Source of the DNA: Mobula birostris
Lineage: Eukaryota
Direction of reading: 5' to 3'
Length of the DNA stretch: 64,000 bases
Assembly (NCBI RefSeq): GCF_030028105.1
Contig: NC_092376.1
Location: 134,476,230-134,540,229, forward strand
Shown: positions 57-48,597 of the stretch, piece by piece
Layout of the letters: each line of letters begins with the position of its first letter
Numbering within the stretch: position 1 is the first letter of the stretch
Notes under the pieces: model-generated
Told to the model about the DNA's origin: nothing
The model's database searches: none
Seen by the model: the letters and a program-made list of their open reading frames with translations, nothing else
Translations under genes and position numbers: made by a program

Positions 57-3000
57 ACAAGATCACAAGACAAAGGAGCAGAAGTAGGCCATTCGGCCCA
101 TCGAGTCTGCTCCGCAGCTCTCCCATGAGCTTAACTATTCACCCATCTAGTTCCAATTTCCGGCTTTTTCCCCATATCCCTTGATATCCTGACTAATTAG
201 GTACCTGTCAATCTCCTCCTTAAAACACCCTCAATGATCGGGCCTCCACAGCTGTATGTGGCAACGAATTCCACAAATCCGTGACCCTCTGGCTAAAAAA
301 ATTTCTCCTCATCTCTGTTTTAACCGGGTACTCTCTAATTCTAAGACTATGGCCCCTTGTCCTGGACTCACCCACCAAGGGAAACAACCTTTCCACATCT
401 ACTCTGTTCAACCCTTTCAACATTCGAAATGTTTCTATGAGATCCCCTCTCATTCTTCTATGCTCTAATGAATACGGTCCAAGACCCAACAAATGCTCCT
501 CATATGTTAGCCCCTGCACTCCAGGAATCATCCTCGTAAATCTTCTCTGAACTCTCTCCAACATCAGTACATCATTTCTAAGATAGGGGGCCCAAAACTG
601 CACACAGTATTCCAAATGAGGTCTCACTAATGCCCCATAGAGCCTCATCAACACCTCCTTACCCTTATACACTATTCCTCTTGAAATGAATGCCAACATA
701 GCATTCGCTTTCCTTACTGCCGATCCAACTTGGTGGTTAACCTTTAGGGTATCCTGCACGAGGACCCCCAAGTCCCTTTGCACTTCCGATTTTTGAATTT
801 TCTCCCCATCTAAATAATAATCTGCCCGATTATTTCTTCTTCCGAAAAATACAACCGTACATTTGTCAACGTTGTACCTCATCTGCCATTTCTTTGCCCA
901 TGCTCCTAAACTGACTAACTCTCTCTGCAACCTTTCCACTTCTTCAACATTTCCTGCTCCTTCACCTACCTTGGTGTCATCTGCAAATTTAGCCACAAAA
1001 CCATTTAATCCATAATCTAAATCATCGCTATACATCGTAAAAAGAAGTGGCCCCAACACCGACCCCTGCGGAACACCACTAGTAACCGGCAACCAATCAG
1101 AATACAATCCCTTTATTCCCACCCTTTGCTTTCTGCCTATCAGCCAATGCTCCACCCATTTCAATATCTTTCCTATAATTCCATGGGCTCTCATCTTATT
1201 AAGCAGCCTCATATGTGGCACCTTATGGAAAGCCTTTTGAAAATCCAAATATACAACATCCACAGCCTCTCCCTTGTCAATCTTATTCCAGATTACCTCA
1301 AAAAATTCCAATAGGTTGGTGAGACAGGATCTTCCCTTCATGAAACCATGCTGGCTTCGGCCTATCTTGTCATGCACCTCAAGGTATTTCATAACCTCGT
1401 CCTTGAGGATTGACTCCAATATCTTTCCAACTACCGATGTCAGACTAATAGGTCTGTAATTTTGTTTTTGCTGCCTCCTTCCTTTCTTAAATAACGGAAC
1501 AACATTTGTGACCTTCCAGTCCTCCGGAACCATGCCAGAGTCTACTGATTCCTGGAAGATCATTTTCAATGCTTCCACAATCTCCAAAGCCACTTCCTTC
1601 AGAACCCTTGGGTGCACCTCACCCGGACCGGAGGCTTATCTATTCTTCGTCCACTTAGCTTCCCAAGCACTTTCTCTCTAGTAATCTTGACTGTACCTAA
1701 TTCTATTCCCTTATACCTCTGGCTATCAGGTATATTGCTCATGTCTTCCACTGTGAAGACTGATGCAAAATACTCATTCAGTTCCTCCGCTATCTCTTTG
1801 TTATCCATTATAATTTCTCCAGCCTCATTTTCAATCGGTCCCGTATCTACCCCTGCCACTCTTTTACTCTTCATATATTTAAAAAAACTCATAGTATCCT
1901 TTTTTATGTTAATCGTCAACTTCCATTCATAATTCATCTTTTCTTTCCTAATGACTTCCTTAGTTTCCTTCTGTAAGTTTTTAAAAGTCTTCCAGTCCTC
2001 ATTTTTCGCACTACTTTTTGCTTCCTTGTACGCCGTTTCTTTTGCTTTTATTTTTGCCTTAACCTCTCTCGTTAGCCACATTTGTGCCACTTTTCGATTC
2101 ATGATTTTCTTTTCTCTGGGAATATAATTTTCCTGCATTTTCCTTATTTCTTGTAGGAATTTCATCCAATCCTGCTCTGCCGTCCCTCCATTTAGCTTAC
2201 TTTTCCAATCGACTTGGGCCAGTTCCTCTCTCATACCACTGTAATTTCCCCTGTTCCACTGAAATATCGATACACCTGATACCAGCTTCTCCTTTTCAAA
2301 TTTGAAACTGAACTCAATGATATTATGATCACTACTTCCAAGGGGTTCCTTTACCTCCAGGCCCCTAATCGCCTCAGGTTCATTACACAGCAGCCAATCC
2401 AAAACAGCCGGTCCTCTGGTGGGCTTCTGGACAAGCTGCTCCAAAAAGCCATCCTGTAGGCATTCTACAAACTCCCTCTCCTGAGATCCATTACCTTCCT
2501 GACTTTCCCAATCCACTTTCATATTAAAATCCCCCATAATTATTTTGACACTTTCCTTCTGACACGCTTTTTCTATTTCCAGCTGCAACTTGTAGTCCAC
2601 ATCCCGGTTGCTGTTTGGAGGCCTGTATATAACTGCTATTAGTGTCTTTTTACCCTTGCCATTTCTTAATTCTACCCATAAGGATCCTATCTCTTCTGAT
2701 CCTATGTCCCTTCTTTCTATTGATTTGATATCGTTACTTACCATCAGGGCCACGCCACCCCCTTTACCTACCTTCCTATCTTTCCTATACACTGTGTATC
2801 CTTGGATATTCAGCTCCCAATCACATCCATCATTTAGCCATGACTCAGTAATGGCCACAATGTCATATCTTTTAACCTGCAGCTGTGCAGCAAGGTCATC
2901 CACTTTATTTCTAATGCTACGTGCATTTAAGTACAGTACATTTAGATCAGTATCTGTTGTTGATTTTGCTATATTTCTATTTTGCAGCAAATTATCCTGT

Positions 3001-3223
3001 ATATTCACCGGCTTGTCCTCCTTGCGATCTTTGCTGCACAGTATTTTTGACTAATTTCTATTTTCCTCTTCCTCGACCCTAACACCTTGGTTTCCTTCCC
3101 CTTGCCAACTTAGTTTAAACCCTCCCTAACAGCTATATTAAACAATCCCACCAGGATATTAGTACCTTTTGAGTTCAGGTGTAATCCATCTTTTTTTTAT
3201 AAGTCATACCTTCCCCAAAATAG
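57..3223 (-). mobile_element. CR1 LINE, 5'-truncated in the end of ORF1, near-intact ORF2
   Basis: ORF1 C-terminus (DGLHLNSKGTNIL...EGLN*, SGNH DxxH motif) at about 3110-3223; APE + RT ORF2; 3' UTR ending in a (TCTTGTGA)-type tail at 57-70. Confidence 0.95.
220..3008 (-). pseudogene. CR1 ORF2 (APE endonuclease + reverse transcriptase), one frameshift near 1620
   Basis: ORF 1599-3008: LNARSIRNK, ITESWL, YRPP, GDFN, SDH. ORF 220-1617: NYRPISLTS, LDFQKAF, GVPQGSVLGP, FADD. Confidence 0.93.
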
Positions 3224-4345: not shown

Positions 4346-7300
4346 GAATGTTGGACCAGACTCAATGGGCCGAATGGCCCTAACTCAGCTCCTATATCTA
4401 ATGAAACTGTTCTTTATACATGAGCAAGGAGTTGATTGCTCCTACTTCTTATGGTTTATTATTGTTGCTGGTTTTCTCTTTCATTATCTAAACAAATGTC
4501 CCTTATGCTTACTGCATAAACCTTTTTAATCCTTCATCTTGCTGACAGAAGCTTAACCAAACACTTTACTGTTTAAGAACGATATTAGCATGGAAAGTTT
4601 GTAGAGGAATAAACATCTAGAGGGAAACCTAGACTCTTCTCTGTGGATGGGGCAATTGTTGGAGGTAATTTATTTTTCTACATCGATAAGGATCTTGTAG
4701 GTAAGCCATTTTAATCATGGTCTATGCTTTTTGAAGGTAGGCAAAAACAGGTGAATTGACTTTCTCCATATTTGCTCACTTGTATGTTTTGTGGTCTTGA
4801 AAATAAAATATCTTAAAGACTTAGCAATATCTTGGCTAGCTTTAACTTTGTATCCCTTATGGGTCAAGTTGAAGGAGTGCATGAACTTCAGGTCAAGAAA
4901 TTCAGTTCTGATTTCAAGGAAGTTTCACTGATTAAACTTTTGCATAATTTGTCTACATTAGAAGATACAAGTAGCAGAATTCAACTTCTATTTATTCAAT
5001 GCATAGTAGAATTAATCTAACTGGATGACTAACTGACTTTCAAACTAATTTCCCCAATGTCTCTTCAAATGCATTAACATTAGAACTCAAACATCATTCA
5101 AACTATACTTTTTGATTTTCAAGCTATACCTTCTCAACTTTGGCTGTTCACTTCCAACAAAAATTTTAAAAAATGTTGTTGACAATTTATTTCTGTCACT
5201 ACTGTTACCAGGTATTGTTTTTATCCACTTTATTGGTCAATTAATTGGACGAATTTAATCCTTAGTTTCATGTCAGTAAACATATTTTTGTATGTTGGAA
5301 ATATGGAAATATTCTTACCTGATATGCAGAGCACAATAACTTATTCCTCTCAGTTTATTAGGTCCTCTAAATCTAAGTATACTTACAAAATTTTGAGAAG
5401 ACAATGTTCACTGTTATGATGGAATAAATGCAAATGAATTAAAAACAAAGTATTTTTTCTTGAACAGTTGAACTGTTATGTTGCGGAATCTGATTAACAA
5501 GAACTTTCAACCAGCAAAATGTAAATATTTGGGATTTGCATCTCTGGCGTTTAGTTTCCTAGTTTCTTATTTTTAATGTTTTGCTTGGCCTGTGTTATCT
5601 TTAGCCTATATATATGAAAGCTAGAATAAGTGAGAGTACAAATTTTAAGGAGGGGAGCCACCCTAGATTAGATTGAAAGTTTTGGTTGTATGGGGAGCGC
5701 TTTGGAAGTTTTTTGTTTAGTAATGCCTGTGATCATCCTCAGTTGGGGAGGTAGATCTAGGTCTCAGGGGTTAATTGTCTTTTCTTGTTTGTGTTAAGGG
5801 GTGGGGGGAGTGTTTTGGGGGATTACCATGGCATTTTATTCATTTTATTCTTTTGTGTGTTACAGATGGCCCAGACTTTTTTTTTCATTGTGCGTTATTG
5901 TGTGCCCTTGCACTGTTTTGGCTTGTAGGCCCTGTGTGTCTTTTGATATGGTTAACATGAGTGCTGCTGATGGAGGCCACCCTGTGAGGTTTATTTCTTG
6001 GAATGGAAAGGGGCTCAATGGTCCTGTTAAAAGAACTAAAGTTCTCTCTCATCTGCAACAATTAAAAGCAGATATACTATTTCTACAAGAGACACATTTA
6101 AGAGTAGAAGACCATAATAGACTCCGTAAAGCATGGATTAGTCAGGTTTTTCATTCCAGATTTAATAGCAGGTCCGGTGGGTGGCAATACTAATCACCAA
6201 AAGAATGCAGTTTACACCATCTGATGTAATCCATGATCCTAATGGCCGCTTTATTATAGTCCCTGGGTCTCTTTTTCAGATACCTATCATTTTGGTAAAT
6301 GTTTATGCCCCTAATAGGGATGATGTCCAATTTGCAAATAAGGTTTTGTCATTAATACCTAACCTGAATACACACCAGCTAATCTTTTCAGGAGGTTTGA
6401 ACGGTGTTATTGATCCATTGCTTGATAGGTCTAGCTCTAGGGGAACTTCTTCTAGTATGGCAAAGGCCTTCTCGATGTTTATGCAACAAACTGGTTATAT
6501 GGATCCTTGGAGATTTTTGATTCCATCGGTTAGGCAATTCTCTTTCTCTTCTCATATTCATCACTCCTATTCTAGGCTAGACTATTTCTTTATAGATAAC
6601 TCCTTGATACCAACGTTTAGACAAATTGAGTACACTGCTATAGTTATATCTGATCACTCGCCCGTGAAACTGGACCTGTGTTTTCCCTTAAACATTAGAG
6701 TACGGCCTCCGTGGAGACTTAACCCCCTTTTGCTTTCCAATGAGAAATTTTGTAGTTATATATCGGCTAACATTGACACATTCTTCGAGACTAACAAAAG
6801 TGACTTGGTATCATACTCTTTACTTTGGGAAACTTTAAAAGTTTACTTGAGGGGTCAAATAATATCATGCCAATAAAGAACGTAGGAAGGAAATGCAAAC
6901 GTTATTGCAATCTATTTTGGACCTGGATAGGCAATATTCTGAGGCACCCACTGCGGAATTATATAAAAGCCGGGCTGATTTGCAACAGAAGTTTAATCTC
7001 CTATCTACAAACCTATCAGAACAATTAATCCTTAAGACACGTGGCCTCTATTATGAATATGGTGACAAGGCGAACCGGCTTATGGCTCATCAATTGAAGC
7101 GCCAAGCTGCATCACGACTTATTCCCTAGAGAAGAGACAGGCACCAAAACTTGACAAGCAACCCAAAAGAGATTAATAACATCTTTGCAGCTTTTTATTC
7201 CTCTCTGTATACCTCAGATATAACGAATGTGGAACGTTTTTTAGATACAGTAATTTGGAAATACCAACTCTTGAATCAGAGGAGATGGAGAATTTATGTT

Positions 7301-8161
7301 GGGCTCTTGGGCAGGAAGAGATTAATAATGCCATTATGGCTATGCAGAGTGGTAAGTCCCCAGGCCCTGATGGTTATCAGATAGAATTTTATAAGAAATT
7401 TAGGGATAGGCTCATACAGGTCCTACTAGAAGTGTTTCAGGAATCTTTGGAGAACGGTTCCTTACCCCCTACTCTTTCACAGGCATCTATTTTGCTACTT
7501 CTTAAAAAGGACAAGGACCCGACTCAATGTGGATCATATCACCCCTCTCATTTTTGAACGTGGATGTGAGAATTTTGGCTAAAGTGCTTGCATGCCGTTT
7601 AGAACACCCCCTTCCCAAGAAAATCTCAGATAATAAAACAGGTTATATTAAAAATCGCCACTCTTTTTTTAATATCCGTCGACTGGCTGATGTGGTTTAT
7701 TCACCCACTGCCTCTCCGAGTCCGGAGGTTGTTATCTCCTCGGACATGGCGAAGGCGTTTGATAGAGTGGAGTGGGTATACTTGTTTAGTGTTTTGGAGA
7801 AATTTGGATTTGGCAGAATATTTGTAGCCTGGGTTAAGCTATTATATCACTTGCCTTTAGCATGCATACAGACGAATTATTCTCGATCTGACTATTTCCC
7901 ATTAACACATGGCACTCGCCAAGGCTGCCCATTGTCCCCTCTTCTCTTTGCAATTGCAATTGAGCCTCTTTCTATTGCACTTAAGTCAACTATGTTATTT
8001 CAAGGCATTAGGAGAGGGGACATGGAAAACCGTGTATCCCTATATGCTGATGACTCTTACTTTATGTTAGCGATGCTGCAGGTAGCAGTCCTGCTATTGC
8101 ATCATTATTAGGTCAATTTGGAGCCTTCTCTGGCTATAAACTGAACCTTCAAAAAAGAAAA

Positions 8162-8282
8162 CAACAGGAATTCTGCAGATGCTGGAAATTCAAGCAAAAC
8201 ACATCAAAGTTGCTGGTGAACGCAGCAGGCCAGGCAGCATCTGTAGGAAGAGGTGCAGTCGACGTTTCAGGCCGAGACCCTT
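8162..8282 (-). mobile_element. Penelope-like pseudo-LTR 3' fragment (single arm with tail) inserted in L1
   Basis: Matches PLE termini at 28688 and 48597; flanked by the perfect 15-bp TSD cttcaaaaaagaaaa (8147-8161 / 8283-8297). Confidence 0.85.
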
Positions 8283-8437
8283 CTTCAAAAAAGAAAATGC
8301 TTTCCCATTAATAACTTGACCCTACAGATCCGACAGGAATCTTTGCCTTTTCCTTTATCTCAAGATGGTTTTGTATACCTAGGAATACACGTTACTCGTT
8401 CTTCTACATCTCTGTTTGAAGCTATTAACCCTTTAGC

Positions 8438-8592
8438 CATCTGGACACAAGCTGGGGTCTGATCAGCCCCGGCTGGGTCACCTGGAGGAGGTTATATGAT
8501 GTTGAAAGACCCGAAACACCCGATGATTCCAGGAACATCACTGAAGATGTGTCCAGAAGCATCAGTAGATGTATGTACACAGCAGGCCTCAG
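8438..8592 (+). mobile_element. Short insertion in L1, probable 3' UTR of an R2-Hero-like non-LTR element
   Basis: Interrupts the L1 frame between FEAINPL and MKADFERW; tttagc repeated at 8432-8437 / 8593-8598; family assignment is from recall only. Confidence 0.5.
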
Positions 8593-11101
8593 TTTAGCTA
8601 AATGAAGGCTGATTTTGAGAGATGGCACTGTTTACCCCTTACTATAGCTAGGAGAATTCAATCAGTGAAAATGACTATACTTCCTAGATTTCTTTATTTG
8701 TTCCAGTGCTTGCCAGTTTTCTTATCTGAATCAGTCGACCAAGCTAGAACCTCCTTTATTTGGAAAAATAAGGTCACTAGGTTTAATAAGCAAATTCTCC
8801 AAAGAGATCATGACGTAGGTGGAATGGGCCTTCCTAGCTTTATTCATTATTACTGGGCATCGAACATTCAAAAGATATTATTTTGGCTCCACCAGCCAGA
8901 TATAAACTGGTACCTGCTTGAGACACGGTCTTGCCACTCCTCATCTCTCCCAGCTTTAGTGTATTCTTTGTGGCCATTGAAATTCTCTCAATTCACATCT
9001 AACCCAGTTGTGCTCTTCACCCTCAAAATTTTTAGTCAATTTCGCTGCCACTATAAGTTCACATCTGCTTCAGTTTTGGGTCCCATTCATCGAAACCATC
9101 TATTTCCCCCCCCTACACTCAATTCAGTTTTCAGACAATGGGGTTTGAATGGTCTTATGCATATTAAGGATTTGTACATTGATAATATATTTGATAGTTC
9201 TGATGACCTGTGCAGTAAATATGGTCTTCCGCATAATCACTTTTTTAAATACCCACAGACTCGCCACTTTGTCAAGGAAAAATTTCCCTCCTTTCCTGAT
9301 CTACCACCTGCTATGTTGTGGGAAAAACTCACTCTTAGCTTTAATGATAAAGGGCTGATCTCTGTACTATACTCTCAGCTGATGTCTTTGGGAGTTCAAG
9401 ATCTAAACAAAACTAAGACTAGGTGGGAGGATGACCTCGGTATGGATCTGGCTGAGGAATAATCGGCAAAAGTATTGAATAGGGTTCATTCCTCGTCATC
9501 ATGTTCTAGACTGGGGCTCATACAATTTAAAGTTTTACACAGGGTACACTTAAGTAAAGCCAGGCTTGCTGACATATATCCTGGGACAGACACTAGCTGT
9601 GATAGGTGTTCCTTCTCTCCGGCTGGTTTAGTGCACGCATTTTGATCTTGCCCTCTGCTTCATGGTTATTGGGCACTGGTTTTTAAAATCATCAATGAGG
9701 TTTTGGGGGTGACATTGAGATCTTGCCCGCTTATAGCTGTATTTGGTGTGACAGATGATGCTTTGGGTTTAAATGCAAACCAGTCAGATATCATTGCATT
9801 TACATCGCTATTGACCCATAGGACAATCTTGCTGGTCTGGAAATCTACCACCCCCTCATCTGCTGCTACTTGGTTAGAGGACATAATGTCTTTTCTGAAA
9901 TCAGAAAAGATTAAATTTACTCTGAGGAGATCTGTGAAAAAGTTCTATTCAAAATAGGGACCTTTCTTGTCATGTTTTGGGAGTCTTAAGGAATTACGTA
10001 CCAGTTGAGGGCATTTGATTGTACTTGGAGATTTGCCCCCTTTTAACACGCATATGGTTTACCTCACAGGGTGGTTGATGTATTGTAATATGAGTGTATT
10101 CTGGATCATCTGAAGTGTTGTGGATGTGAGTGGGCCTTCGCCTTGAAGGAATGTGGGGTATGACTGTGCAGTGTCCGTACTTGTATTTGTGAAGTGTTGT
10201 ATTGTAAATATATTAGCTGCCATGGTATGTTTGGGAAGGGCGGGTGAGGGGAGTTTTGTTTAGGGGTAAGATATAAAAGCAAAATGGAGGAAAATGTAAT
10301 GCATTACAGATTCTGTATTTTATCATTCCTTCAATAAAAATAAAATTTTAAAAATAAAGAATTTTTTGATAAATCAAGCATAAAATGATGAGATATGTCA
10401 GTGTTTGCATTTTAATATGTGATGTTGAATAGCAGTATTGAAAGTGGAAGAATATTATGACCTTCAGTTCGAATGTTAATGCAATATTATTGAAAGTCAT
10501 AATCATCTATGATTCCAATAGTCTAGGAGTTAGTTCACTTTCAAAATTTATAAAATAGATTAATCATTCCAACTTAAAATGATATTTTAACCTTGTGTAG
10601 CTTATCTATATCTCTCAAGACTGTCAAAGCAAGTAGTCTTCCCAACATGTAGCTGTAGGAAATAAGGTGGCAATCATTGAAACATCAAGGTGACTTTGAA
10701 GGAATAATGAATTGTACAGCTTTCATGCCTACAATCGGGTGTAATTTCATAAAGCACTCATGATGAGGGCAAGGGAAAAGAGCACCATCTTTGGTGTGAT
10801 CTGTTAAAATGAATATGCTCATTATCATTGTTCAGTCAACTCCCATGGGTCATTAGAATTACAGTCTTTGGCATGATAAAATAACAAATATGCAGATATC
10901 AAACATGTCAGTGCATCTGTCCACCTAAAGGTTACATTTCACAATGGCATATAAAATTATGAATAATTTACAGATTTGAGTGGAAGTCAAAGTCATTTTA
11001 ACATTTCAAATGTTGAATGTTGGGCTTCATCAGGATCCGGTTGTCCTTGCATACAAATCACAGCAAGTTAATGTGTAAGTACAGTAACTAACTATTAAAG
11101 C

Positions 11102-11297
11102 CACACACACACAAAAATGCTGGTGAACGCAGCAGGCAAGGCAGCATCTATAGGAAGAGGTACAGTCGACGTTTCAGGCCGGAACCCTTCATCAGGACGG
11201 ATGCTGCCTGGCCTGCTGCTCTCACCAGCATTTTTTGTGTGTGTTGCTTGAATTTCCAGCATCTGCAGATTTCCTTGTGTTTGCATTTTTAAATGAG
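11102..11297. mobile_element. PLE-derived hairpin mini-element
   Basis: Inverted arms acacacaaaaatgctggtga...gcatc / gatgc...caccagcattttttgtgtgt, with a tail on the right arm; TSD ctattaaagc (11092-11101 / 11298-11307). Confidence 0.85.
11165..11198 (-). ncRNA. Minimal type-I hammerhead ribozyme motif (best-preserved copy)
   Basis: Minus strand reads GUC CUGAUGA AGGGUUCCGGCCU GAAACGUC GAC: intact CUGANGA and GAAA cores, palindromic ACGU in place of stem III, GUC cleavage triplet, stem I GUC/GAC. Confidence 0.7.
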
Positions 11298-13164
11298 CTA
11301 TTAAAGCTACCATTTTTTTACAGAGACAGTGAAGTATGTAAGTGAACATGTTTAGTACAGATATGTATATTTAGTATAGAGACTGCACTAGGTGTACCGT
11401 TTGCACGTTTTTTCTTTCTTGCCTAAGGAGAAATATTCTTTCCTTTGAGGTAGAGCAATAAATTTTCAACAGACAGATTTCTGGGATGAAGGATGGAGAA
11501 ATTCACTGTTCATAACACTAAATGCACTTATAGTTCCTTCACCTCTTGGTACTTCCTATAATAGTGTATAGTGCTCATGATTATTAATGAATTTCTAGGC
11601 AATAATATTCATAATGCATTTTGCAGGTAGATCTGTCAGGATGTTCACCTCTGGGTTTAGTTATAGGAAGCGACAATTTCAAAATAAGGAAATGGCGAAA
11701 TTTGTACGAAGTTTTGTGAATCAGAAATTCTGTAAGCACCAAATAGCAATACTTTTGAACAATGGAGCAGGCATGCATGGCTTCTGCCATGTCAGTCGTG
11801 AAATGCTCTGCAATTATTATTTAGTGAAAATTAGCTTCCTAGCTGTTGGACAATATATGAATTGCTTCAGATTATTGTTGGGTTAAGTTTAGTATCTCTG
11901 ACAGCACTCTGAGACGTTTTCTGTAATAGCAGCTTTTTTTAAACAATGATTTAAGTATTAGAATTCATCTGCAGAAGTCATAATTTTGCTGCTATATTGT
12001 CTAATTTCATGATATAAAAGCATAAGGTATGATTAAATCAATTCTGTAGTATCACTTTTGTTTCTGAATGATCAGATTTATTGGTATTAGTTGCTGTTCT
12101 TATTTTTAAAGTAATATAAATGAGTTTTTATTTTGTGGGAAATTAAATACGAAAAAAAATTAACACATTAGAATCAATATTAAATACATTTTCTGCCTAT
12201 TTAGGTTGTTTGAGAATGATTATGAAACTTACCATTTAATTGTCACCTTGTCATTAGTATTTTGTATCTTTGATCCAATGTTTTTTTTATTGGCATCCAC
12301 TTGTAAGTTGTTGGATGACCAGTCCACCATTATGAAAGTCAAACTTCTTGCAAGCCCCTAAAATGATTATGTAACCCTCTCACTGGGGCTCATATGCAGA
12401 CTTGGCTCATTAGCTAACTGCTAACAGCCATGTGAGTCAGCAGTGAGAAAGTCACCTTTCATAAACAATATACTACTAGGGTTGGTGTAATTTGGAATTC
12501 AACCAAACAGGAATGTTGTGATGTTCCAATTAATTGAAACTCAATTTGAGTGAATGCTGTGTAATTACTGCCCAGAGACAGTTATCAGTAGCCCAGGAAT
12601 GCCAGATCATGCACCAGTATAAAATTATGAAGTAAGTATATTTACCAAATTATCAACTTTAAAAAAGAGTAACAGGAAAAAAAGAAAAGAAAAATAAAAG
12701 GGCCAATACAGCTAAACCAGTCCAATGTGAACATAACATTGGAGCTCATACAGGAGAAGACAGGATTTATCTGTTCCCTCATGTGCTGGATGCTTGGTCT
12801 GTGTGAAAGCACCCACTAGATTCTGAACTCCCCTTGAATACCTCCTGAACAAGTTGGCTCCATTCATCTGCATAAAGCACTTCTTACAATGGGAACTCTC
12901 CTTCAAACAACATCCTGCAGTATCTTCCCTGTGTCCTGCTCAGCAGCTCCCATCAGAAGACGCCAAACCAGACTACTGTCCTTCAGAAAAATCTTCCCCT
13001 CACCTCTTGAGAACCTTCTCTCACATCCCACAATCCTTAATAGCTGACACATATTCCTAGGTTGGGCATGTTCCTTATCTTTAGCTGAAGCCAAAAAAGT
13101 TCTTTTCAGCGTGGCACACTACTTTTACAGAAAACTGCAAATACAACCTAATTCACGGCACAGC

Positions 13165-17663: not shown

Positions 17664-20600
17664 TACAAAAAGGACAGGTTGCACTTGAATCCTAGGGGGA
17701 CCAATATCCTGGCAGGGAGATTAGCGAGGGCTACTGAGGTGACTTTAAACTAGAATGGTTGGGAGGTGGGAATCAAATTAAAGAGGCTAGGCATGAGGAG
17801 GTTAGTTCACTACAGGGGGATGGGAACCAGTGCAGAGAGACAGAGGGGTGTAAAGTGAGGGTAGAAACAAAAAGTACTAAGGAAAAAAGTAAAAGTGGCA
17901 GGCCGACAAATCCAGGGCAAGCATTAAAAAGGGCCACTTTTCAGCATAATTGTATAAAGGTTAAGAGAGTTGTAAAAGAGCGCCTGAAGGCTTTGTGTGT
18001 CAATGCAAGGAGCATTCGTAATAAGGTGGATGAATTGAAAGTGTAGATTGTTATTAATGATTATGATATAGTTGGGATCACAGAGACATGGCTCCAGGGT
18101 GACCAGGGATGGGAGCTCAACGTTCAGGGATATTCAATATTCAGGAGGGATAGAAATGAAGGAAGGGGAGGTGGGGTGGCATTGCTGGTTAAAGAAGAGA
18201 TTAACGCAATAGAAAGGAAGGACATAAGCTGGGAAGATGTGGAATCGATATGGGTAGAGCTGCGTAACACTAAGGGGCAGAAGACGCTGGTGGGAGTTGT
18301 GTACAGGCCACCTAACAGTAGTAGTGAGGTCGGAGATGGTATTAAACAGGAAATTAGAAATGTGTGCAATAAAGGAACAGCAGTTATAATGGGTGACTTC
18401 AATCTACATGTAGATTGGGTGAACCAAATTGGTAAAGGTGCTGAGGAAGAGGATTTCTTGGAATGTATGTGGGATGGTTTTTTGAACCAACATGTCGAGG
18501 AACCAACTAGAGAGCAGGCTATTCTGGACTGGGTTTTGAGCAATGAGGAAGGGTTAATTAGCAATCTTGTCGTGAGAGGCCCCTTGGGTAAGAGTGACCA
18601 TAATATGGTGGAATTCTTCATTAAGATGGAGAGTGACATAGTTAATTCAGAAACAAAGGTTCTGAACTTAAAGAGGGGTAACTTTGAAGGTATGAGACGT
18701 GAATTAGCTAAGATAGACTGGCAAATGACACTTAAAGGATTGACGGTGGATATGCAATTGCAAGCATTTAAAGGTTGCATGGATGAACTACAACAATTGT
18801 TCATCCCAGTTTGGCAAAAGAATAAATCAAGGAAGGTAGTGCACCCGTGGCTGACAAGAGAAATTAGGGATAGTATCAATTCCAAAGAAGAAGCATACAA
18901 ATTAGCCAGAGAAAGTGGCTCACCTGAGGACTGGGAGAAATTCAGAGTTCAGCAGAGGAGGACAAAGGGCTTAATTAGGAAGGGGAAAAAAGATTATGAG
19001 AGAAAACTGGCAGGAAACATAAAAACGGACTGTAAAAGCTTTTATAGATATGTAAAAAGGAAAAGACTGGTAAAGACAAATGTAGGTCCTCTGCAGACAG
19101 AAACAGGTGAATTGATTATGGGGAGCAAGGACATGGCAGACGAATTGAATAATTACTTTGGTTCTGTCTTCACTAAGGAGGACATAAATAATCTTCCAGA
19201 AATAGTAGGGGACAGAGGGTCCAGTGAGATGGAGGAACTGAGCGAAATACATGTTAGTAGGGAAGTGGTGTTAGGTAAATTGAAGGGATTGAAGGCAGAT
19301 AAATCCCCAGGGCCAGATGATCTGCATCCCAGGGTGCTTAAGGAAGTAGCCCAAGAAATAGTGGATGCATTAGTGATAATTTTTCAAAACTCGTTAGATT
19401 CTGGACTAGTTCCTGAGGATTGGAGGGTGGCTAATGTAATTCCACTTTTTAAAAAAGGAGGGAGAGAGAAACCGGGGAATTATTGACCGGTTAGCCTAAC
19501 GTCGGTGGTGGGGAAACTGCTGGAGGATGTGATAACAGCACATTTGGAAATCGGTGAAATGATCGGACAAAGTCAGCATGGATTTGTGAAAGGAAAATCA
19601 TGTCTGACGAATCTCATAGAATTTTTTGAGGATGTAACTAGTAGAGTGGATAGGGGAGAACCAGTGGATGTGGTATATTTGGATTTTCAGAAGGCTTTTG
19701 ACAAGGTCCCACACAGGAGATTAGTGTGCAAACTTAAAGCACACGGTATTGGGGGTAAGGTATTGGTGTGGGTGGAGAGTTGGTTAGCAGACAGGAAGCA
19801 AAGAGTGGGAATAAACGGGACCTTTTCAGAATGGCAGGCGGTGACTAGTGGGGTACTGCAAGGCTCAGTGCTGGGACCCCAGTTGCTTACAATATATATT
19901 AATGACTTGGATGAGGGAATTAAATGCAGCATCTCCAAGTTTGCGGATGACACGAAGCTGGGTGGCAGTTTTAGCTGTGAGGAGGATGCTAAGAGGATGC
20001 AGGGTGACTTGGATAGATTGGATGAGTGGGCAAATTCATGGCAGATGCAATTTAATGTGGATAAATGTGAAGTTATCCACTTTGGTGGCAAAAATAGGAA
20101 AACAGATTATTATCTGAATGGTGGCCGATTAGGAAAAGGGGAGGTGCAACGAGACCTGGGTGTCATTATACACCAGTCATTGAAAGTGGGCATGCAGGTA
20201 CAGCAGGCGGTGAAAAAGGCGAATGGTATGCTGGCATTTATAGCGAGAGGATTCGAGTACAGGAGCAGGGAGGTACTACTGCAGTTGTACAAGGCCTTGG
20301 TGAGACCACACCTGGAGTATTGTGTGCAGTTTTTGTCCCCTAATCTGAGGAAAGACATCCTTGCCATAGGGGGAGTACAAAGGAGGTTCACCAGATTGAT
20401 TCCTGGGATGGCAGGACTTTCATATGAAGAAAGACTGGATGAACTGGGCTTGTACTCGTTGGAATTTAGAAGATTGAGGGGGGATCTGATTGAAACATAT
20501 AAGATCCTAAAGGGATTGGACAGGCTAGATGCAGGAAGATTGTTCCCGATGTTGGGGAAGTCCAGAACGAGGGGCCACAGTTTGAGGATAGAGGGGAAGC

Positions 20601-20877
20601 CTTTTAGGACCGAGATTAGGAAAAACTTCTTCACACAGAGAGTGGTGAATCTGTGGAATTCTCTGCCACAGGAAACAGTTGAGGCCAGTTCATTGGCTAT
20701 ATTTAAGAGGGAGTTAGATATGGCCCTTGTGGCTACGGGGGTCAGGGGGTATGGAGGGAAGGCTGGGGCGGGTTTCTGAGTTGGATGATCAGCCATGATC
20801 ATAATAAATGGCGGTGCAGGCTTGAAGGGCCGAATGGCCTACTCTTGCACCTATTTTCTATGTTTCTATGTTTCTAT
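17664..20877 (+). mobile_element. CR1 LINE, 5'-truncated in the end of ORF1
   Basis: ORF1 end KKDRLHLNPRGTNILAG...TLN* (stop 17751-17753), ORF2, 3' UTR with (TTTCTATG)n tail. Confidence 0.95.
17759..20779 (+). pseudogene. CR1 ORF2 (APE + RT) with in-frame stops at 18044-18046 and 19484-19486
   Basis: Three collinear same-frame ORFs: VNARSIRNK, YRPP, GDFN, SDH, KSPGPD, LDFQKAFD, QGSVLGP, FADD. Confidence 0.93.
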
Positions 20878-21115
20878 AATTTTTAAGGCATTGTCAATGT
20901 AAAATTATTTTTAAAAGCAAAACAGAATAGAAATAATTCTCATCTTTCTATATACATCTTTGAGTATTACCTAGGAGAAAATGGCATGTTAATTGTGAGC
21001 TAATGAAATATATATTTAATATATTTATTTTTTGCTGTAAATCAAAGAAGATATACAAATCACAATGGATACTATCATCAGTGGCATGGAATCAATTAAA
21101 TTTTTAAACGCCTAA

Positions 21116-21130
21116 CTCTCTCTCTGTCTG

Positions 21131-21181
<51 letters not shown>

Positions 21182-21191
21182 CACACACACA
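21116..21191. repeat. Compound (CT)n(CA)n microsatellite
   Basis: Directly visible. Confidence 0.97.
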
Positions 21192-21826
21192 GAGTCCTCC
21201 AACCCCATGGCCTTTAGAAAGTTCACGGCTGTCAAAAGCTTTTGAAGAGTTTTAACAATCTCTAATAGGCAAATAGAGTTAAATAAATAAATATTAAAAA
21301 ATTAAATTACTTAAAATTGAACTTATTTGACAGACATTAATTGAAAACTTTGAGATTAGGTGAAACAATGAGAAAGTAACAGACTACTTACTGACACATG
21401 CTACGTCAGCTATCTTGGCCATTAAACTAAATGCATCTGACTCCTCCATTGAGGACATTGATACTCTGAACCTGGAGCCAGTAGCAGATGTCCAATATGT
21501 TGACATATGACCTCTGCTTATTTTGGACTTTCACATTGTAATGTTCAAGCATGGAATTCAGGGAAAAAATGACCTTGCACTGTAGCTAGCAAGTAGCTCC
21601 TTACAAAGCTGCCATCAGAAGATCAGTACAATCCAGCTTGTTGATATATTGACCAATTCAATATAAGTTTTTAGATTTTAGATAGAGAAGTAATGTCATT
21701 AAATATTTAAAAATAAAACAAGAATCTGGTCAAATTGTCAAAGTGATCTGGATGTATGATACAACAACACCTTGACTTCATTCAATAAGGCCAATGCATA
21801 ATCAAATTCAGCATAATTCTCTAGAG

Positions 21827-21991
21827 CAACACACACAAAATGCTGGTGGAACGCAGCAGGCCAGACAGCATCTATGGGAAGAGGTACAGTCGACGTTTTG
21901 GGCCAGGACCCTTCTGCGTGTTCCTCCAGCATTTTGTGTGTGTTGCTTGAATTTCCAGCATTTGCAGATTTCCTCGTGTTTGCGTTTTTAA
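21827..21991. mobile_element. PLE-derived hairpin mini-element
   Basis: caacacacacaaaatgctgg / ccagcattttgtgtgtgttg inverted arms, tail on the right arm; left arm stops inside the hammerhead core (...acccttc). Confidence 0.85.
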
Positions 21992-22019
21992 ATTCTACAG
22001 AGATAAGCTTGAAAATGGA

Positions 22020-26903: not shown

Positions 26904-27091
26904 ACACAATATGCACCAAATGCTGAGGAAGCTCAGAAGGTCAGGCAGCATCTATGAAGAGAAATAAAAAGTCAACATTTTGGGCTGAGACCTTTCATCA
27001 GCTCTCTTTATTCCTTTCCATAGATGCTGCCTGACTTGCTGAGTTCCTCCAGTATTTTGTATGTGTTAATCCACAGAATCTCTTGTGTTTA
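26904..27091. mobile_element. Older PLE-derived hairpin mini-element
   Basis: caggcagcatctatg / catagatgctgcctg inverted arms; left arm ends at ...tttcatcag (hammerhead core, minus strand). Confidence 0.7.
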
Positions 27092-27149
27092 TGCACCACA
27101 TCCACTAAGCATACAGAGATGCCTAAATTTTAACTTCTCAGCAACAAAA

Positions 27150-28488: not shown

Positions 28489-28580
28489 CTGAGTTGGATG
28501 ATCAGCCATGATCATAATAAATGGCGGTGCAGGCTCGAAGGGCCGAATGGCCTACTCCTGCACCTATTTTCTATGTTTCT
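28489..28580 (+). mobile_element. CR1 3' UTR-only insertion
   Basis: Almost identical to 20776-20877; TSD ataattt (28482-28488 / 28581-28587). Confidence 0.85.
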
Positions 28581-28687
28581 ATAATTTTCATGAAACTCCT
28601 TTGAACCCCAGGGGTGCAGTGCTAGCCTGAGCACACCCGGCACATCTTCAAGAAAAAAGCTGAACTAAACAAGCTAATTAATTAGGT

Positions 28688-29805
28688 AAACATGAGGAAA
28701 TCCGCAGATGCTGGAATTTCAATCAACACACATAAAAATTACTGGTGAACGCAGCAGGCAAGGCAGCATCTATAGGAAGAGGTACAGTTGACGCTTGGGG
28801 CTGAGACCCTTCATCAGGGTTAACTGAAAGAAGAGATAGTAAGAGATTTGGAAAGTGGGAGGGGGAGGGGGAGATCTGAAGTGATAGGAGAAGACAGGAG
28901 GGGGAGGGATGGAGCTGAGAGCTGAAAAGTTGACTGGCAAAAGGGATATGAAAGGATCATGCGACGGGAAGCCTAGGGAGAAAGAAAAGAGTGGGGGAGG
29001 GAAGCCCAGATGTTGGGCAAGGAATATAGTGAGAGGGACAGAGGGAGAAAAAGGAGAGAGAAAAAATATATATAATAATAATAAATAAATAACGGATGGA
29101 GTACAAAGGGCAGGTGGGACATTAACGGAAGTTAGAGAAGTCAGTGTTCATGCCATCCGGTTGGAGGCTATCCAGATGGAATATAAGGTGTTGTTCCTCC
29201 AACCTGAGTGTGGCTTCATCTTTACAGTAGAGGAGGCCGTGAATAAACATATCAGAATGGGAATGGGACGTGGAATTAAGATGTGTGGCCACTGGGAGAT
29301 CCCACTTTCTCTGGCAGACAGAGCATAGGTGTTTAGCAAAACGGTCTCCCAGCCTGCGTCGGGTCTCACCAATATATAGAAGGCCACATCAGGAACACCG
29401 CACGCAGTATCTCACACCAGCCGACTCACAGGTGAAGTGTCGCCTCACCTGGAAGGACTGCCTGGGGCCCTGAATGGTGGTGAGAGAGGAAGTGTAAGGG
29501 CATGTGTAGCACTTGTCCTGCTTACAAGGATAAGTGCCAGGAGGGAGATCAGTGGGGAGGGATGGGGGGGAACGAATGGACAAGGGAGTCGCGTAGGGAG
29601 CAATCCCTGTGGTAAGCAGAGGAAGGGGGACGGAAAGATGTGCTTAATGGTGGGATCCCGTTGGAGGTGGCGGAAGTTACTGAGAATTATATGTTGGACC
29701 TGGAGGCTAGTGGGGTGGGAGGGTGAGGACAAGGAGAACCCTATTCCTAGTGGGGTGGCGCGAGGATGGAGTGAGAGCAGATGTGCGTGAATCTATTTAT
29801 TTATT

Positions 29806-29863
<58 letters not shown>

Positions 29864-30185
29864 TTTTCTCCCTCTGTCCCTCTCACTATACTCCTTGCCC
29901 ATCCCCTGGGCTTCCCCCTCTCACTTTCTCTCTCCCTAGGCCTCCTGTCCCATGATCCTCTCATATCCCTTTTGCCAAACAACTTTCGAGCTCTCAGCTC
30001 CATCCCTCCCCCTCCTGTCTTCTCCTATCATTTCAGATCTCCCTCTCCCCCTCCCACTTTCAAATCTCTTACGATCTCTTCTTTCAGTTAGTCCTGACAA
30101 AGGGTCTCGGCCCAAAACATCGACTGTACCTCTTCCTATGGATGCTGCCTGGCCTGCTGCGTTCACCAGCAATTTTTATGTGTGT
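28688..30185 (-). mobile_element. Neptune-type Penelope-like element, 5'-truncated, with inverted pseudo-LTR
   Basis: Minus body 28688-29791 encodes GTYPCKQDKCYTC and the GIY-YIG region; inverted arm 29792-30185; 13-bp TSD taattaattaggt (28675-28687 / 30186-30198). Confidence 0.9.
29810..29861. repeat. (CT)n microsatellite within the PLE pseudo-LTR
   Basis: Directly visible; expanded relative to the opposite arm (about 29055). Confidence 0.95.
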
Positions 30186-40544: not shown

Positions 40545-41022
40545 TTTTATTTTTATTTTTGAGGACCAGCATGGTAACAGGCCCTCCCACCCCAACAAGC
40601 CCACACTGCCTAATTTCATCGATGTGACCAATTAACCTACTAACTCGTATGCCTTTGGAATGTGAGAGGAAACCAGAGCACCCGGATGAAAGCCATGTGG
40701 TCACAGCGAGAATCTGCAAACTCCTTACAGACAGTGGCAGGGAATAAACCCGGGTCACTAATAACACACACAAAATGATGGTGGAACGTAGCAGGCCAGA
40801 CAGCATCCATAGGAAGAAGCACAGTCGATGTTTCGGGCCGATCGTCCTGGTCTCGGCCCAAAATGTCGACTGTGCTTCTTCCTATGGATGCTGTCTGACC
40901 TGCTGCGTTCCACCAACATTTTGTGTGTGTTGCTTGAATTTCCAGCATCTGCAGATTTCTTTGAGTCTGTGTCACTAATGCTATAACAGTTTTACACTAA
41001 TTGCTACGCTACTGTGCTGTCC
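40545..41022 (-). mobile_element. tRNA-type SINE (HE1-like) split by a PLE hairpin
   Basis: Same SINE core motifs; sequence continues after the TSD at 40971. Confidence 0.7.
40763..40970. mobile_element. PLE-derived hairpin mini-element
   Basis: About 75-bp near-perfect inverted arms meeting in hammerhead stem II; tail on the right; 9-bp TSD gtcactaat (40754-40762 / 40971-40979). Confidence 0.9.
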
Positions 41023-43399: not shown

Positions 43400-45680
43400 G
43401 TGAATCATGAGTCTTTGACCTTCCAATGTTTATCACTTCATACTTTTCTGGTTTGAGCTCCATCTGTCACTTCTCAGCCTAGATTTGCATCCCATCAGTA
43501 TTCCATTGTAACCATTGACAATTTTTGTCACTGTCCACAACACCACCAACCTTTGTGTCATCTACAAACTTACTAACCCTCCCTTCTACTTTCTCATCCA
43601 AGTCATTTAGAAAAACCACAAAGAGCAGCGGAACACCACTGATCACTGACCTCCGGGCAGAACATTTTCCATCTACTACCACCCTCTGTCTTCTATGGGC
43701 AAGCCAATTCTGAATCCACGCAGCCAAATTACTCTGGATCCCATGCCTCCTGGCTTTCTAAATGAGCCTAGTATGAGCCATGTTGGCTACTCCTAATCAA
43801 CTCCTGATGAAGGGTCTCAGCCTGAAATGTCAACTATACTCTTTTCCATAGATGCTGCCTAGCCTGCTGAGTTCCTCCAGTGTTTTCTGTGTGTTGCTTG
43901 GATTTCCAGCATCTGCAGATTTTCTCTTGCTGATGCTTCTCCAAATGCTCATAAATCCAGTCTCTAAGAATCATCTCCAATATTTTGCCCATTACTGATG
44001 TAGAACTCCTCATCTTTAATTCCCACAATTATCCCAATTACCTTTCTGAATAAAGGAATAACATTTGCCATCCTCCAGTCTTCTGATACTATTCCTGTGG
44101 CCAGTGAGGATGGAAAGATCACCACCAAGGCACAGCTGTCTCTTGCCTCATTTCCTGAAGTTACCTGGGTATCCCTGGTCTGGCCTTGGGGTCTTATCTA
44201 CCTTAATGTGTTTCAAGTTTCTAGCATATCCTCTTTCTTAAATTTGATATGCTCCAGCATATCAGCCTGTTATATGCCGACCTCACATTCCCTCTCACTG
44301 GTGAATACTGAAGCAAAGTATTCATAAAGGACCTCCCCTGCCTTCCCTGACTCAAGGCGTGTTTCTTTTTTTAAATCCCTGATCAGTCCTACCATCACTC
44401 TAGTCATCCTTCTGTTCTTTACGCATATGTAGACCTCTTTTGCGTTTTCTTTAATTCTACTCACCAAGACCTTGTCATGTCCCCTTCTAATTCTCCTAAC
44501 TCTATTTTAAGCTCCTTCCTGGCTACCTTGTAGCTCCCTAGAGGCCTGTCTGCTCTTTGGTTCCTAAACTTTAAATATGCTTCTTTATTTCTCTTGACTA
44601 GATGTTCCACCTTTCTTGCCAACTACAGTTTCTTCATCCTACCATCCTTTCCCTGCCTCCATGTGACAAACCTATAGAGAGTCCCCTGAAAGAGCTGCCT
44701 AAATGACCTTCACATTCCCATTGCATATTTCCCTGAGTACGTCCATTCCCAATTTATGCTCCCAAGTTCCTGCTCAATAGCACCATAATTTCAGCTCGCC
44801 CAATTAAATACTTTCCTGTACTGACTGCTCCTATCCCTGTCCAAAACTATGATAAAGGTCAAGAGGTTGATATCATTATGTCCAATATACCTACCGAAAG
44901 AATTGACACCTGACCAGATTTATTACCTAGTTCCAGATCCAGTACGGCCTCTCCTCTAGTTGGTCTGTCTACATATTGTATCAGGACCCTTCATGGACAC
45001 ACCTAACGAATTTCACCTCACCTGAATGTTTTGCACCAAGGAGGTGCCAATCAATATTAGGGAAGTTGAAGAGTTGAAGTCACCCATGACAACAACCCAG
45101 CTATTTTTTCATCTTTCCAAACTCTGCCTCCCAATATATTCCTCAGTGTTTCTGGTGCTGTTTAGGGGTGAGGTCAATAGAATACTCCCAATAAAGTAAT
45201 TGCTCTCTTCTTGTTTCTGACTTCCACCTACACTGACTCGGTAGGTGAGTCCTCCATGAATTCCTCCCTTTCTGCAGGTGTGACACTATCGCTGATTAGC
45301 AATGTCACACCTACGTCTCTTTTACCTGCCTCCATGTCCCTTTTGAAACATCTAAACACTGGACCATCCAGCAGTTATCCTTGCCCTTGTGACATCCAAG
45401 TCTCTGTAATGGCCACAACGTCGTACTAACATATGTTCAAAGTTCATCGCTCTTGTTCTTGATACTTCTCGCATTAAAATAGACACATTTCAACCCATCC
45501 AGTTAACTGCAATTATGTTATTTCCACTGCCTATCTTTCCTCACAGTCTCATTACATGCTGCATCTACCTTTATACCTTGTACCCCATCTTCTGACCTAT
45601 ATCTCTGATTCCCATCCTTTGTCCAAGTAGTTTATACCCTCCCAACCAACTCCAGCAACACTGGCTGCAAGGATATCAGG
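43400..45680 (-). mobile_element. Decayed CR1 (end of ORF1, EN and RT)
   Basis: WIQNWLAHRRQRVVV..SKFVDDTKV; EYFASVFT; ORF1-end DILAASVAGVGWEGIN at about 45630-45680. Confidence 0.85.
43801..43930 (+). mobile_element. PLE pseudo-LTR single arm beginning at the hammerhead core
   Basis: cctgatgaagggtctcagcctgaaatgtcaac followed by pLTR 3' sequence and tail, inside CR1. Confidence 0.8.
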
Positions 45681-46699: not shown

Positions 46700-48597
46700 T
46701 AAATTGCTGGTGAACGCAGCAGGCCAGACAGCATCCATAGGAAGAAGCACAGTCGATGTTTTGGGCCGAGACCCTTCGTCAGGACTAACTGAAAGAAGAG
46801 ATAGTAAGAGATTTGAAAGTGGGAGGGGGAGGGCGAGATCCGAAATGATAGGAGAAGACAGGAGGGGGAGGGATGGAGCTAAGAGCTGGAAAGTTGATTG
46901 GCAAAAGGGATACAAGGCTGGAGAAAGGAGAGGATCATGGGACGGGAGGCCTAGGGAGAAAGAAAGGTGGAGGGGAACGCCAGAGGAAGATGGAGAGCAG
47001 GCAAGGAGTTGTTCCGTGTTCCAAGCCTATACTGGTATCCATCCCCCACTTTTCCTTCGCTACATCGATGACTGCATTGGTGCTGCTTCCTGCACGCATG
47101 CTAAGCTTGTTGACTTCATTAACTTTGCCTCCAACTTTCACCCTGCCCTCAAAGTTACCTGGACCATTTCACACACCTCCCTCCCCTTTCTTGATTTTTT
47201 TGTCTCTTTCTCGGGAGACTGCTTATTTACTCATGTCTACTATTAGCCTACGGACTCTCACAGCTACCTGGACTATTCCTGTTCCCACCCTGTCTCATGG
47301 AAAAATGCCATCCCCTTCTCGCAACTCCTCCGTCTCCGCCGCATCTGCTCTCAGGATGAGGCTTTTCATTCCAGGACAAAGGAGATGTCTTCCTTTTTTT
47401 AAAGAAAGGGGCTTCCCTTTCTCCACCATCAATTTTGCTCTCAAACACATCTCTCCCATTTCATGCACATCTGCTCTCACCCCATCTTCCCGCCACCCCA
47501 CTAAGGATAGGGTTCCCCTTGTCCTCACCTACCACCCAACCAGTATCCGGGTCCAACATATAATTCTCCGTAACTTCCTCCACCTCCAACGGGATCCCAC
47601 CACTAAACACATCTTTCCCTCCCCCCTTTCTGCTTTCCGGAGGGATCGCTCCCTATGCGACTCCCTTGTCCATTAGTCCCCCCCCATCCCTTCCCACTGA
47701 TCTCCCTCCTGGCACTTATCCTTGTAAGTGGAACAAGTGCTACACATGCCCTTACACTTCCTCCCTTACCACCATTCAGGGCCCCAGACAGTCCTTCCAG
47801 GTGAGGCGCCACTTCACCTGTGAGTCGGCTGATGTGATATACTGTGTCCGGTGCTCCCGGTGCGGCCTTCTATATATTGGCAAGACCCGACGCAGACTGG
47901 GAGATCATTTTGTTGAACACCTATGCTCTGCCTGCCAGAGAAAGTGGGATCACCCAGTGGCCACACATTTTAATTTCATGTCCCATTCCCATTCTGATAT
48001 GTCTATCCATGGCCTCCTCTACTGTAAAGATGAAGCCACACTCAGGTTGGAGGAACAATGCCTTATATTCCATCTGGGTAGCCTCCAACCTGATGGCATG
48101 AGCATTGACTTCTCAAACTTCCGTTAACGCCCCTCCTCCCCTTCTTACCCCATCCCTTATTTATTTACTTATTTGTTTGTTTGTTTATATTTTTTTCCTT
48201 GTTTTTCTCTCTCTTTTTTCCTCTCTGGCCCTCTCACAATAACTCCTTGCCTGCTCTCCATCTTCCTCTGGCGCTCCCCTTCCCCTTTCTTTCTCCCTAG
48301 GCCTCCTGACCCATGATCCACCCCCTTCTCCGGCCTTGTATCCCTTTTGCCAATCAACTTTCCAGCTCTTAGCTCCATCCCTCCCCCTCCTGTCTTCTCC
48401 TATCATTTTGGATCTCTCCCTCCCCCTCCCACTTTCAAATCTCTTACTACATCTTTTGTCAGTTAGTCCTGACAAAGGGTCTCAGCCCGAAACATCAACT
48501 GTGCTTCTTCCTATAGATGCTGTCTGGTTTGCTGCATTCCACCAGCATTTTGTGTGTGTTGCTTGAATTTCCAGTATCTGCAGATTTCCTCGTGTTT
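46700..48597 (+). mobile_element. Neptune-type Penelope-like element, 5'-truncated, with inverted pseudo-LTR
   Basis: Inverted arm 46700-47010; body 47011-48597; 12-bp TSD acatgtcacttg (46688-46699 / 48598-48609). Confidence 0.92.
47011..48127 (+). pseudogene. PLE RT C-terminus + Cys linker + GIY-YIG endonuclease (frameshifted)
   Basis: FLRYIDDCIG; RVPLVLTYHP; GTYPCKWNKCYTC; VIYCVRCSRCGLLYIGKT..R; HPVATHF. Confidence 0.9.

Follow-up and report, generated by a model that had tools for sequence, protein, structure and literature searches.

Minimal type-I hammerhead motifs in decayed Penelope-like insertions, likely of the Neptune clade, in a 64-kb window of the Mobula birostris genome

Background

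The role of the hammerheads carried by Penelope-like elements (PLEs) is treated as an open question in PMC8557442 and PMC11167929. The minimal hammerheads described in PMC4209133 are inactive as monomers and weak as dimers. In the anole Poseidon element the ribozyme cut only with protein and its catalytic mutants inserted normally in vitro; no RNA ends were found at the ribozyme site, and two reverse-transcription starts bracket the tail (PMC11167929). A Penelope pseudo-LTR is described as having an Inr/DPE promoter (PMC2377424), and a CX2-5CxxC linker is given as absent from Penelope/Poseidon and common to Neptune and Nematis (PMC8557442). PLE-derived hammerhead repeats have been reported in the sole chondrichthyan sampled in a recent preprint (bioRxiv 10.64898/2026.07.22.740005). 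Here we analyse repeated hammerhead-like motifs in a 64-kb stretch of Mobula birostris DNA, referred to below as the window.

Results

The motif and its copies

The motif is confirmed, as far as its sequence goes, to be of a known kind, with a minimal type-I hammerhead shape at the end of a Penelope-like element, and self-cleavage is predicted for it. The six copies named in the initial annotation, together with its partial copies, were found in the same positions and on the same strands, and its consensus and structure assignment stand as well (stem I, core box 1, extra A, 4-bp stem II, GAAA, ACGU and GUC triplet). BLAST and alignment gave 11 hammerhead remnants in the window:

8260, 11165, 21890, 26975, 28786 and 46751, minus strand: hammerhead remnants
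30090, 43803 and 48465, plus strand: hammerhead remnants
40810-40870, two strands: head-to-head pair of hammerhead remnants

A 25-nt pattern with at most three mismatches matched seven times in the window and not once in 100 dinucleotide shuffles. Rfam contains curated hammerhead families. Rfam models run over the 64-kb window gave no hammerhead family match up to E=5.

Numbered by the hammerhead convention, the family comprises a stem I with up to 5 pairs, then CUGACGA, a single extra A and a 4-bp stem II closed by G10.1-C11.1, followed by GAAA and then C15.2-G16.2-U16.1-C17, with 15.1-16.1 forming the ACGU palindrome and without stem III. N7 is mostly C. The family majority has intact core boxes (CUGANGA and GAAA) with an NUH triplet, and it keeps both the extra nucleotide between A9 and 10.1 and the G10.1-C11.1 pair. 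The ACGU sits between GAA and C17, and a dimer pairing through the palindrome can be drawn. Both core boxes are kept in two of the 11 window copies (11165 and 43803), and the palindrome and triplet are kept as well only in 11165.

This copy had been described as the only intact one:

11165..11198, minus strand: minimal hammerhead remnant, inverted arm of insertion B

It comprises core box 1 (11195-11189), the extra A, stem II (11187-11176), GAAA (11175-11172) and the ACGU palindrome, with the predicted cut between 11168 and 11167. The description is right in that no other of the 11 copies has both cores and the palindrome, and only partly right for stem I, of which it has three of the family's five possible pairs because the arm is cut there. 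The closing G-C pair of its stem II (10.1-11.1) is turned into G.U. In a minus-strand transcript the arms of insertion B are predicted to form a long hairpin (-90 kcal/mol) with the hammerhead in its loop. The copy is a poor candidate for an active ribozyme: its inverted arm is 5'-cut, its stem I is only 3 bp long, and insertion B offers it no same-strand partner.

Eight insertions hold the copies

The 11 remnants distribute over eight separate Penelope-like insertions, six of which join an inverted arm to a sense arm while two consist of a sense arm alone. A tail of ~35-45 nt is present only on sense arms. Target-site duplications with 10-15 matches were found in six of the eight insertions, the control maximum being 9 among 56 mismatched flank pairs. 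The anatomy is as in PLEs, with an inverted 5' copy, a tail at one end and a target-site duplication of variable length. The insertions are as follows:

8163..8282, minus strand: insertion A, a single tailed sense arm, 5'-cut inside the hammerhead, core box 1 absent
8147-8162 / 8283-8298: duplication of insertion A, 15 matches; the host is a LINE remnant
11092..11307, plus strand: insertion B, inverted arm ~11105-11198, tailed sense arm ~11199-11297
11092-11101 / 11298-11307: target-site duplication of insertion B
21825..21990, plus strand: insertion C, a partial hammerhead (21913-21878, minus strand) on the inverted arm, joined to a short tailed sense arm; no duplication above control in the automated search
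26919..27089, plus strand: insertion D, diverged subfamily, inverted arm with decayed hammerhead ~27001-26968 (minus strand), sense arm
26910-26918 / 27090-27098: duplication of insertion D
28688..30184, minus strand: insertion E, sense body 29791-28688 with hammerhead 28786-28821 (minus strand) and broken linker and GIY-YIG remnant
29854-30186: inverted arm of insertion E with hammerhead remnant 30090-30125 (plus strand); 14-match duplication
40763..40968, plus strand: insertion F, two head-to-head arms with partial hammerheads 40841-40810 (minus strand) and 40849-40872 (plus strand); 10-match duplication
43802..43930, plus strand: insertion G, a lone sense arm beginning at hammerhead 43803-43835 (cores intact, palindrome and stem I mutated), inside a LINE remnant; duplication uncertain
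46700..48596, plus strand: insertion H, inverted arm 46701-47013 with hammerhead 46751-46786 (minus strand), sense body 47014-48596
46685-46699 / 48595-48609: duplication of insertion H, 14 matches
48128..48596, plus strand: 3' pseudo-LTR of H, with pyrimidine-rich tract, TCAGTT (48459-48464), hammerhead 48465-48500, 3' arm and tail

A reading of these insertions as non-LTR retrozymes was rejected, as none of the eight holds a same-strand tandem motif pair; no cis dimer is available, because no insertion bears two same-strand motifs.

Several side observations concern the arms. A second subfamily (26915-27090 and 43802-43930) has the same hammerhead and a different sequence just 3' of it, and contig alignments to the 48465 copy show loose ends at 48502 and 48513 alongside this subfamily. 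Stem I position 1.4 has a T>A change of 38% in the contigs of sequencing run X6. The inverted arms at 40796-40898 and 11105-11250 fold as long near-perfect hairpins, and such inserts, if transcribed, could feed double-stranded or small RNA. An Rfam match to mir-2131 at 40796-40898 (E=0.0027, far under the gathering score) was dismissed as the inverted-arm hairpin of insertion F.

The host element

Coding remnants are found in two of the eight insertions (E and H), with the reverse transcriptase (RT) YIDD motif and thumb in H only, and both remnants carry stops and frameshifts.

47019..48127, plus strand: broken Penelope-like ORF end, with RT YIDD, thumb, CX4CxxC zinc linker and GIY-YIG with CCHH

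In both E and H the hammerhead lies ~340 nt downstream of the GIY-YIG stop, which is the pseudo-LTR position. The GIY-YIG domain of the window remnant scores E=0.006, below the curated cut-off. The CX4CxxC zinc linker between RT and endonuclease is present in both long copies and in their relatives, and a 17-row alignment shows no variation at the linker and CCHH residues. Among cluster representatives, 3,915 protein relatives were found at E<=0.001. Of the relatives with names, the best are ray proteins from Mobula hypostoma and Hypanus sabinus (9 hits in 126 candidates), at 73-89% over most of the query. We scanned 12 long relatives for domains at E<=0.01, and of these nine have RT followed by a C-terminal GIY-YIG, two GIY-YIG only and one RT only.

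Set against the clade definitions of PMC8557442, these features rule out Penelope/Poseidon, Naiad and Hydra, and Neptune and Nematis remain. The clade is likely Neptune, an assignment drawn from domain features; Neptune is the likelier of the two because vertebrates yielded only Neptune and Poseidon in the survey of bioRxiv 10.64898/2026.07.22.740005. The earlier placement of a minimal type-I hammerhead in the pseudo-LTR of a Neptune-type Penelope element is upheld as Neptune-like by the coding remnants, the position and the covariation in related motifs.

Age of the insertions and decay at CpG sites

The family had been called recently active, and the window copies do not support this: their non-CpG divergence is 4-20%, their ORFs are broken and their two long copies (E and H) share 84.6% identity. 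Measured against the in-window majority, most copies differ by 4-11% at non-CpG sites, and the subfamily copy 26975 by 20%. Younger members may be present elsewhere in the genome. The Penelope family is younger than its host LINEs, because insertions A and G sit inside LINE remnants.

CpG sites account for most of the changes in the motif. It has five CpGs in 35 nt, four of which fall on G8, C11.1-G12, C15.2-G16.2 and C17-G1.1. Among the window copies, 32 of 104 CpG cells in the motif are mutated (30 by transition) vs 8 of 226 other cells. At non-CpG sites, a smaller share of cells is changed inside the motif than elsewhere (8/226 vs 77/830, p=0.004), a comparison that mixes subfamily differences with decay and counts related copies as independent. 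In 57,237 contigs of four sequencing runs, G8 is G in 69-92% and G1.1 in 57-80%, despite a bias to the A of the reference (the 48465 copy); G16.2 is G in 45-74% and the loop CpG in 45-70%. Eight of the nine variable places listed in 48465-48500 are CpG positions. As G8, G12, G16.2 and G1.1 are each part of a CpG, methyl-CpG deamination after insertion is the likely cause of the loss of most copies. Judged by their sequences, the 11 window copies are likely inactive, mutated leftovers. Descriptor searches would undercount the motif in vertebrates, because these five CpGs leave the full core in only one of the 11 copies.

Other repeats were also noted in the window. Broken LINE copies with AP endonuclease and RT domains (Pfam) lie at 220-3050 (minus strand), 5798-9462 (plus), 18047-20776 (plus) and 53400-61625 (minus), and a further broken LINE piece at 42400-44500 was seen by DNA similarity only. 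Two repeat pairs (24010-24322 / 58841-59152 and 20773-20869 / 28486-28582) are 95-98% identical, far younger than the Penelope copies, and end in TAGAACA-type or TTTCTATG-type short tandem tails; they are likely LINE 3' ends or SINE partners. A short perfect-looking inverted repeat with arms of ~20 bp at 62998-63063 is unrelated to the Penelope family.

Covariation in related motifs

Stem I covaries among related motifs. We used a core-only pattern that left stem I free and obtained 128 matches, in 124 metagenome loci (5 of 64 parts of the collection) and one viral locus, which were clustered to 35, 53 or 68 families. With the core and two stem II pairs set by the pattern itself, covariation was testable only in stem I and inner stem II. 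The first three stem I pairs stand far above shuffles at all three levels of clustering. Of the 53 families, 45 have a Watson-Crick pair at 2.1-1.1, 39 at 2.2-1.2 and 30 at 2.3-1.3, while the shuffled means are 16.7, 14.0 and 13.7 and none of 5000 shuffles reaches the observed value for any of the three. All four pair types occur at stem I pairs of the metagenome families. The fourth pair is weakly above shuffles (22 vs 14.6 in the 53 families; 78/5000), and the fifth and sixth pairs are not above shuffles in these families. An alignment of 20 rows (18 loci hand-picked with a bias for variety and two window copies) has 90% paired cells, and the covariation in this same hand-picked set is 0.83 vs at most 0.14 for slid controls.

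The covariation backs the motif class by sequence comparison, and the covarying motifs belong to families other than that of the window. Within the window family no compensatory stem changes were seen in the window copies or the contigs of four runs. A PLE protein match lies in the flank of 18 of the 128 matches, and 13 of the 128 have an endonuclease end upstream on the same strand; among the 61 metagenome matches with at least 400 nt of upstream sequence, only seven have the endonuclease end there. Viral contigs gave one pattern match (L001), which lacks stem support, and yielded no protein relative.

Some metagenome loci show layouts of their own. L033, L074 and L084 have head-to-head motif pairs ~25-40 nt apart. 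At L067:323-1850 the motif lies ~450 nt upstream of the PLE ORF start, the position of a 5' pseudo-LTR. Identical motifs (L036 and L037) lie ~5 kb apart on one strand of one contig, a tandem layout missing from the window.

Breakpoints at the 5' edge of the hammerhead

Each of the six short insertions (8282, 11198, 21913, 27001, 40849 and 43802) has its 5' end where the hammerhead begins, at offsets from C3 that are, in increasing order, -3, -2, 0, +6, +6 and +9. Six of eight ends within 13 nt were reached in 0-23 of 20,000 simulations under four broad nulls and in 233 under a narrow one, in a post hoc test with n=8. Just upstream of these ends is TCAGTT, at 48459-48464 in long copy H, which is initiator-like or splice-acceptor-like; we take it to resemble the initiator consensus.

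In 61 other families, CATT, TCAT and TTCA lead the 4-mer enrichment over the 14 nt that precede the core, and CAKT occurs near the core in 17.6 of the 61 families vs 1.2-8.0 far upstream; however, bins downstream reach 14.0, which leaves the initiator idea weak. A splice acceptor (YAG just upstream) as a general feature was not supported, with no enrichment (34 near vs 29.4 far of 116). The window element does have a pyrimidine tract and AG upstream of the hammerhead, and the Drosophila Penelope intron offers a precedent for a splice-acceptor YAG. In the metagenome families the 5' ends scatter more widely, with 19 of 59 lying up to 20 nt upstream and 13 of 59 beyond 100 nt, which fits ordinary heavy truncation equally.

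The ends may reflect transcription that starts shortly ahead of the ribozyme, reverse transcriptase that stops at the fold, or simple truncation. We put forward only tentatively, as a rather doubtful reading, that the transcript starts at TCAGTT eight bases before the catalytic core, with the ribozyme at the head of the RNA, that the palindromic inserts are run-off cDNAs on uncut RNA and that the ribozyme is a protein-triggered decapping switch. If this were true, the palindromic inserts of 120-200 bp in ray genomes would be "strong-stop" products primed at the tail of the 5' pseudo-LTR, and their breakpoints would preserve, as fossils, the position of the start site, readable from ray assemblies.

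Arm ends and folding energies

Eleven of the 14 arms cross the scissile bond and none ends exactly there; three stop 5-40 nt downstream of the cut site, which is compatible with a cleaved template. The template RNAs of the 11 remnants were uncut, because all 11 read through the scissile bond, and uncut templates argue against the ribozyme making the template ends. Synthesis of cDNA begins near the tail, 3' of the ribozyme, and so can reach the ORF only by passing an uncut ribozyme. The read-through arms accord with the findings on the anole Poseidon element (PMC11167929).

Nearest-neighbour folding of the family majority gives -30.6 kcal/mol for two inactive monomers (2 x -15.3) vs -17.9 for the active dimer, in energies that leave out tertiary core contacts. 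These modelled energies, which favour the monomer, are in line with the weak dimer activity reported in PMC4209133. Single copies fold no better than shuffles (z -0.4 to 0.5), the motif being too small for this test to inform.

Discussion

We think it probable that the window holds a minimal type-I hammerhead in a pseudo-LTR likely of the Neptune clade, that its 11 copies are likely inactive leftovers and that cleavage acts late. In an intact tandem element (pLTR-ORF-pLTR), two motifs would pair via their ACGU palindromes to form stem III, and cleavage of the paired motifs after GUC would be slow and would likely depend on the protein that the element encodes. The insertions in the window were copied from uncut RNA, with the reverse transcriptase reading through the ribozyme. 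It likely starts at two sites bracketing the tail, which would yield a tailed sense arm and a tail-less inverted arm. Because the window insertions come from uncut RNA, cleavage likely acts late or in a limiting way, to trim or retire transcripts, and is likely not the source of template ends.

The main competitor, which we judge improbable, is a ribozyme whose cutting is obligatory for processing: it would release RNA of unit length, possibly circular, from tandem transcripts, and this RNA would be the template. It was proposed in PMC4209133, where dimers of the Schistosoma motif cleave weakly; the stem covariation indicates selection on the fold, and the three arms that end 3' of the cut site would suit it. 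However, the other arms span the bond with no end at it, Naiad elements thrive without the motif according to PMC8557442, and the core mutants of anole Poseidon insert normally in vitro, with no RNA ends at the site (PMC11167929). The initial annotation had called the motif an RNA-processing signal, and this claim is weakened by 11 remnants copied through the cut site and by a cleavage that is dispensable in vitro in that element. A circular template, as proposed in 2014, may likewise leave the cut site intact in cDNA, and the arm data would be compatible with it.

Less credible again is the idea that the fold persists because it binds protein or serves translation or pausing where the element RNA begins, catalysis being vestigial in this family. 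The predicted misfolding of the family majority as a monomer and the short insertions that stop at the 5' edge of the fold both point that way, and PMC4209133 leaves room for roles other than cleavage, but in that same majority sequence the catalytic core is complete and both the GUC triplet and the G10.1-C11.1 pair are kept, and with protein help a related PLE motif does cleave (PMC11167929). That a repeated transposon end merely resembles a hammerhead by chance we hold to be very unlikely indeed, since covariation largely refutes it. The lack of an Rfam hammerhead match in the window, single copies folding like shuffles and a repetition within the window that is common descent would all fit chance; yet the motif fits the published traits exactly (extra nucleotide after A9, G10.1-C11.1, palindromic 15.2-16.2; PMC4209133), its pseudo-LTR position is as expected and related motifs covary.

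Comparison with known systems

A close counterpart of this motif is the minimal hammerhead of metazoan PLEs, including the fish Xena, Poseidon and Neptune elements (Cervera & De la Peña 2014, PMC4209133), which is of the same type I and has no helix III. The shared traits described there are the palindromic 15.1-16.1, the extra nucleotide after A9, G10.1-C11.1 and a short helix I, and also the location in pLTRs, mostly as solitary truncated copies, with opposite-strand pairs close by. Stem II has 4 bp in the window family, whereas 7-8 bp are given for Schistosoma in PMC4209133. In the passages of that paper searched here no cartilaginous fish is named; another part may name one.

The anole Poseidon element PAc (Frangieh et al. 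2024, PMC11167929) also has a hammerhead made of stems I and II, followed downstream by a tail of 30-40 nt; its reverse transcription starts at two sites bracketing that tail, and uncut RNA is its insertion substrate. Unlike the window family, PAc belongs to the Penelope/Poseidon clade, has no zinc linker and has an ORF that starts inside the ribozyme, as described in PMC11167929; the ORF start of the window family lies outside the 64-kb window. The endonuclease-bearing (EN+) Neptune PLEs of Craig et al. (2021, PMC8557442) share the C-terminal GIY-YIG with CCHH, the CX2-5CxxC linker, inverted 5'-truncated copies, a tail at one end and a hammerhead close to the 3' terminus. That paper reports for Neptune a bias towards (TA)n targets, which is not obvious in the window, where the targets are AT-rich with no (TA)n arrays. 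The vertebrate non-LTR retrozymes (Li, Clavereau & Pollet 2026, bioRxiv 10.64898/2026.07.22.740005) likewise have type I hammerheads from PLE pLTRs; they are described as head-to-tail tandem arrays, whereas the window copies are dispersed single or inverted insertions.

Our literature search found no description of a hammerhead-bearing Penelope element in a ray or shark; the repeat databases Repbase and Dfam may already list the family. The family is abundant: the 64-kb window alone has eight insertions, and two single sequencing runs gave 18,533-32,276 contigs that match it. This abundance permits a purely computational test of where cDNAs stop relative to the scissile bond. None of these findings changes the element class. 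They extend the known association of hammerheads with Penelope pseudo-LTRs to a very abundant family, likely of rays. The arrangement itself is already described, fish Neptune included (Cervera & De la Peña 2014), and what is new here is the host group.
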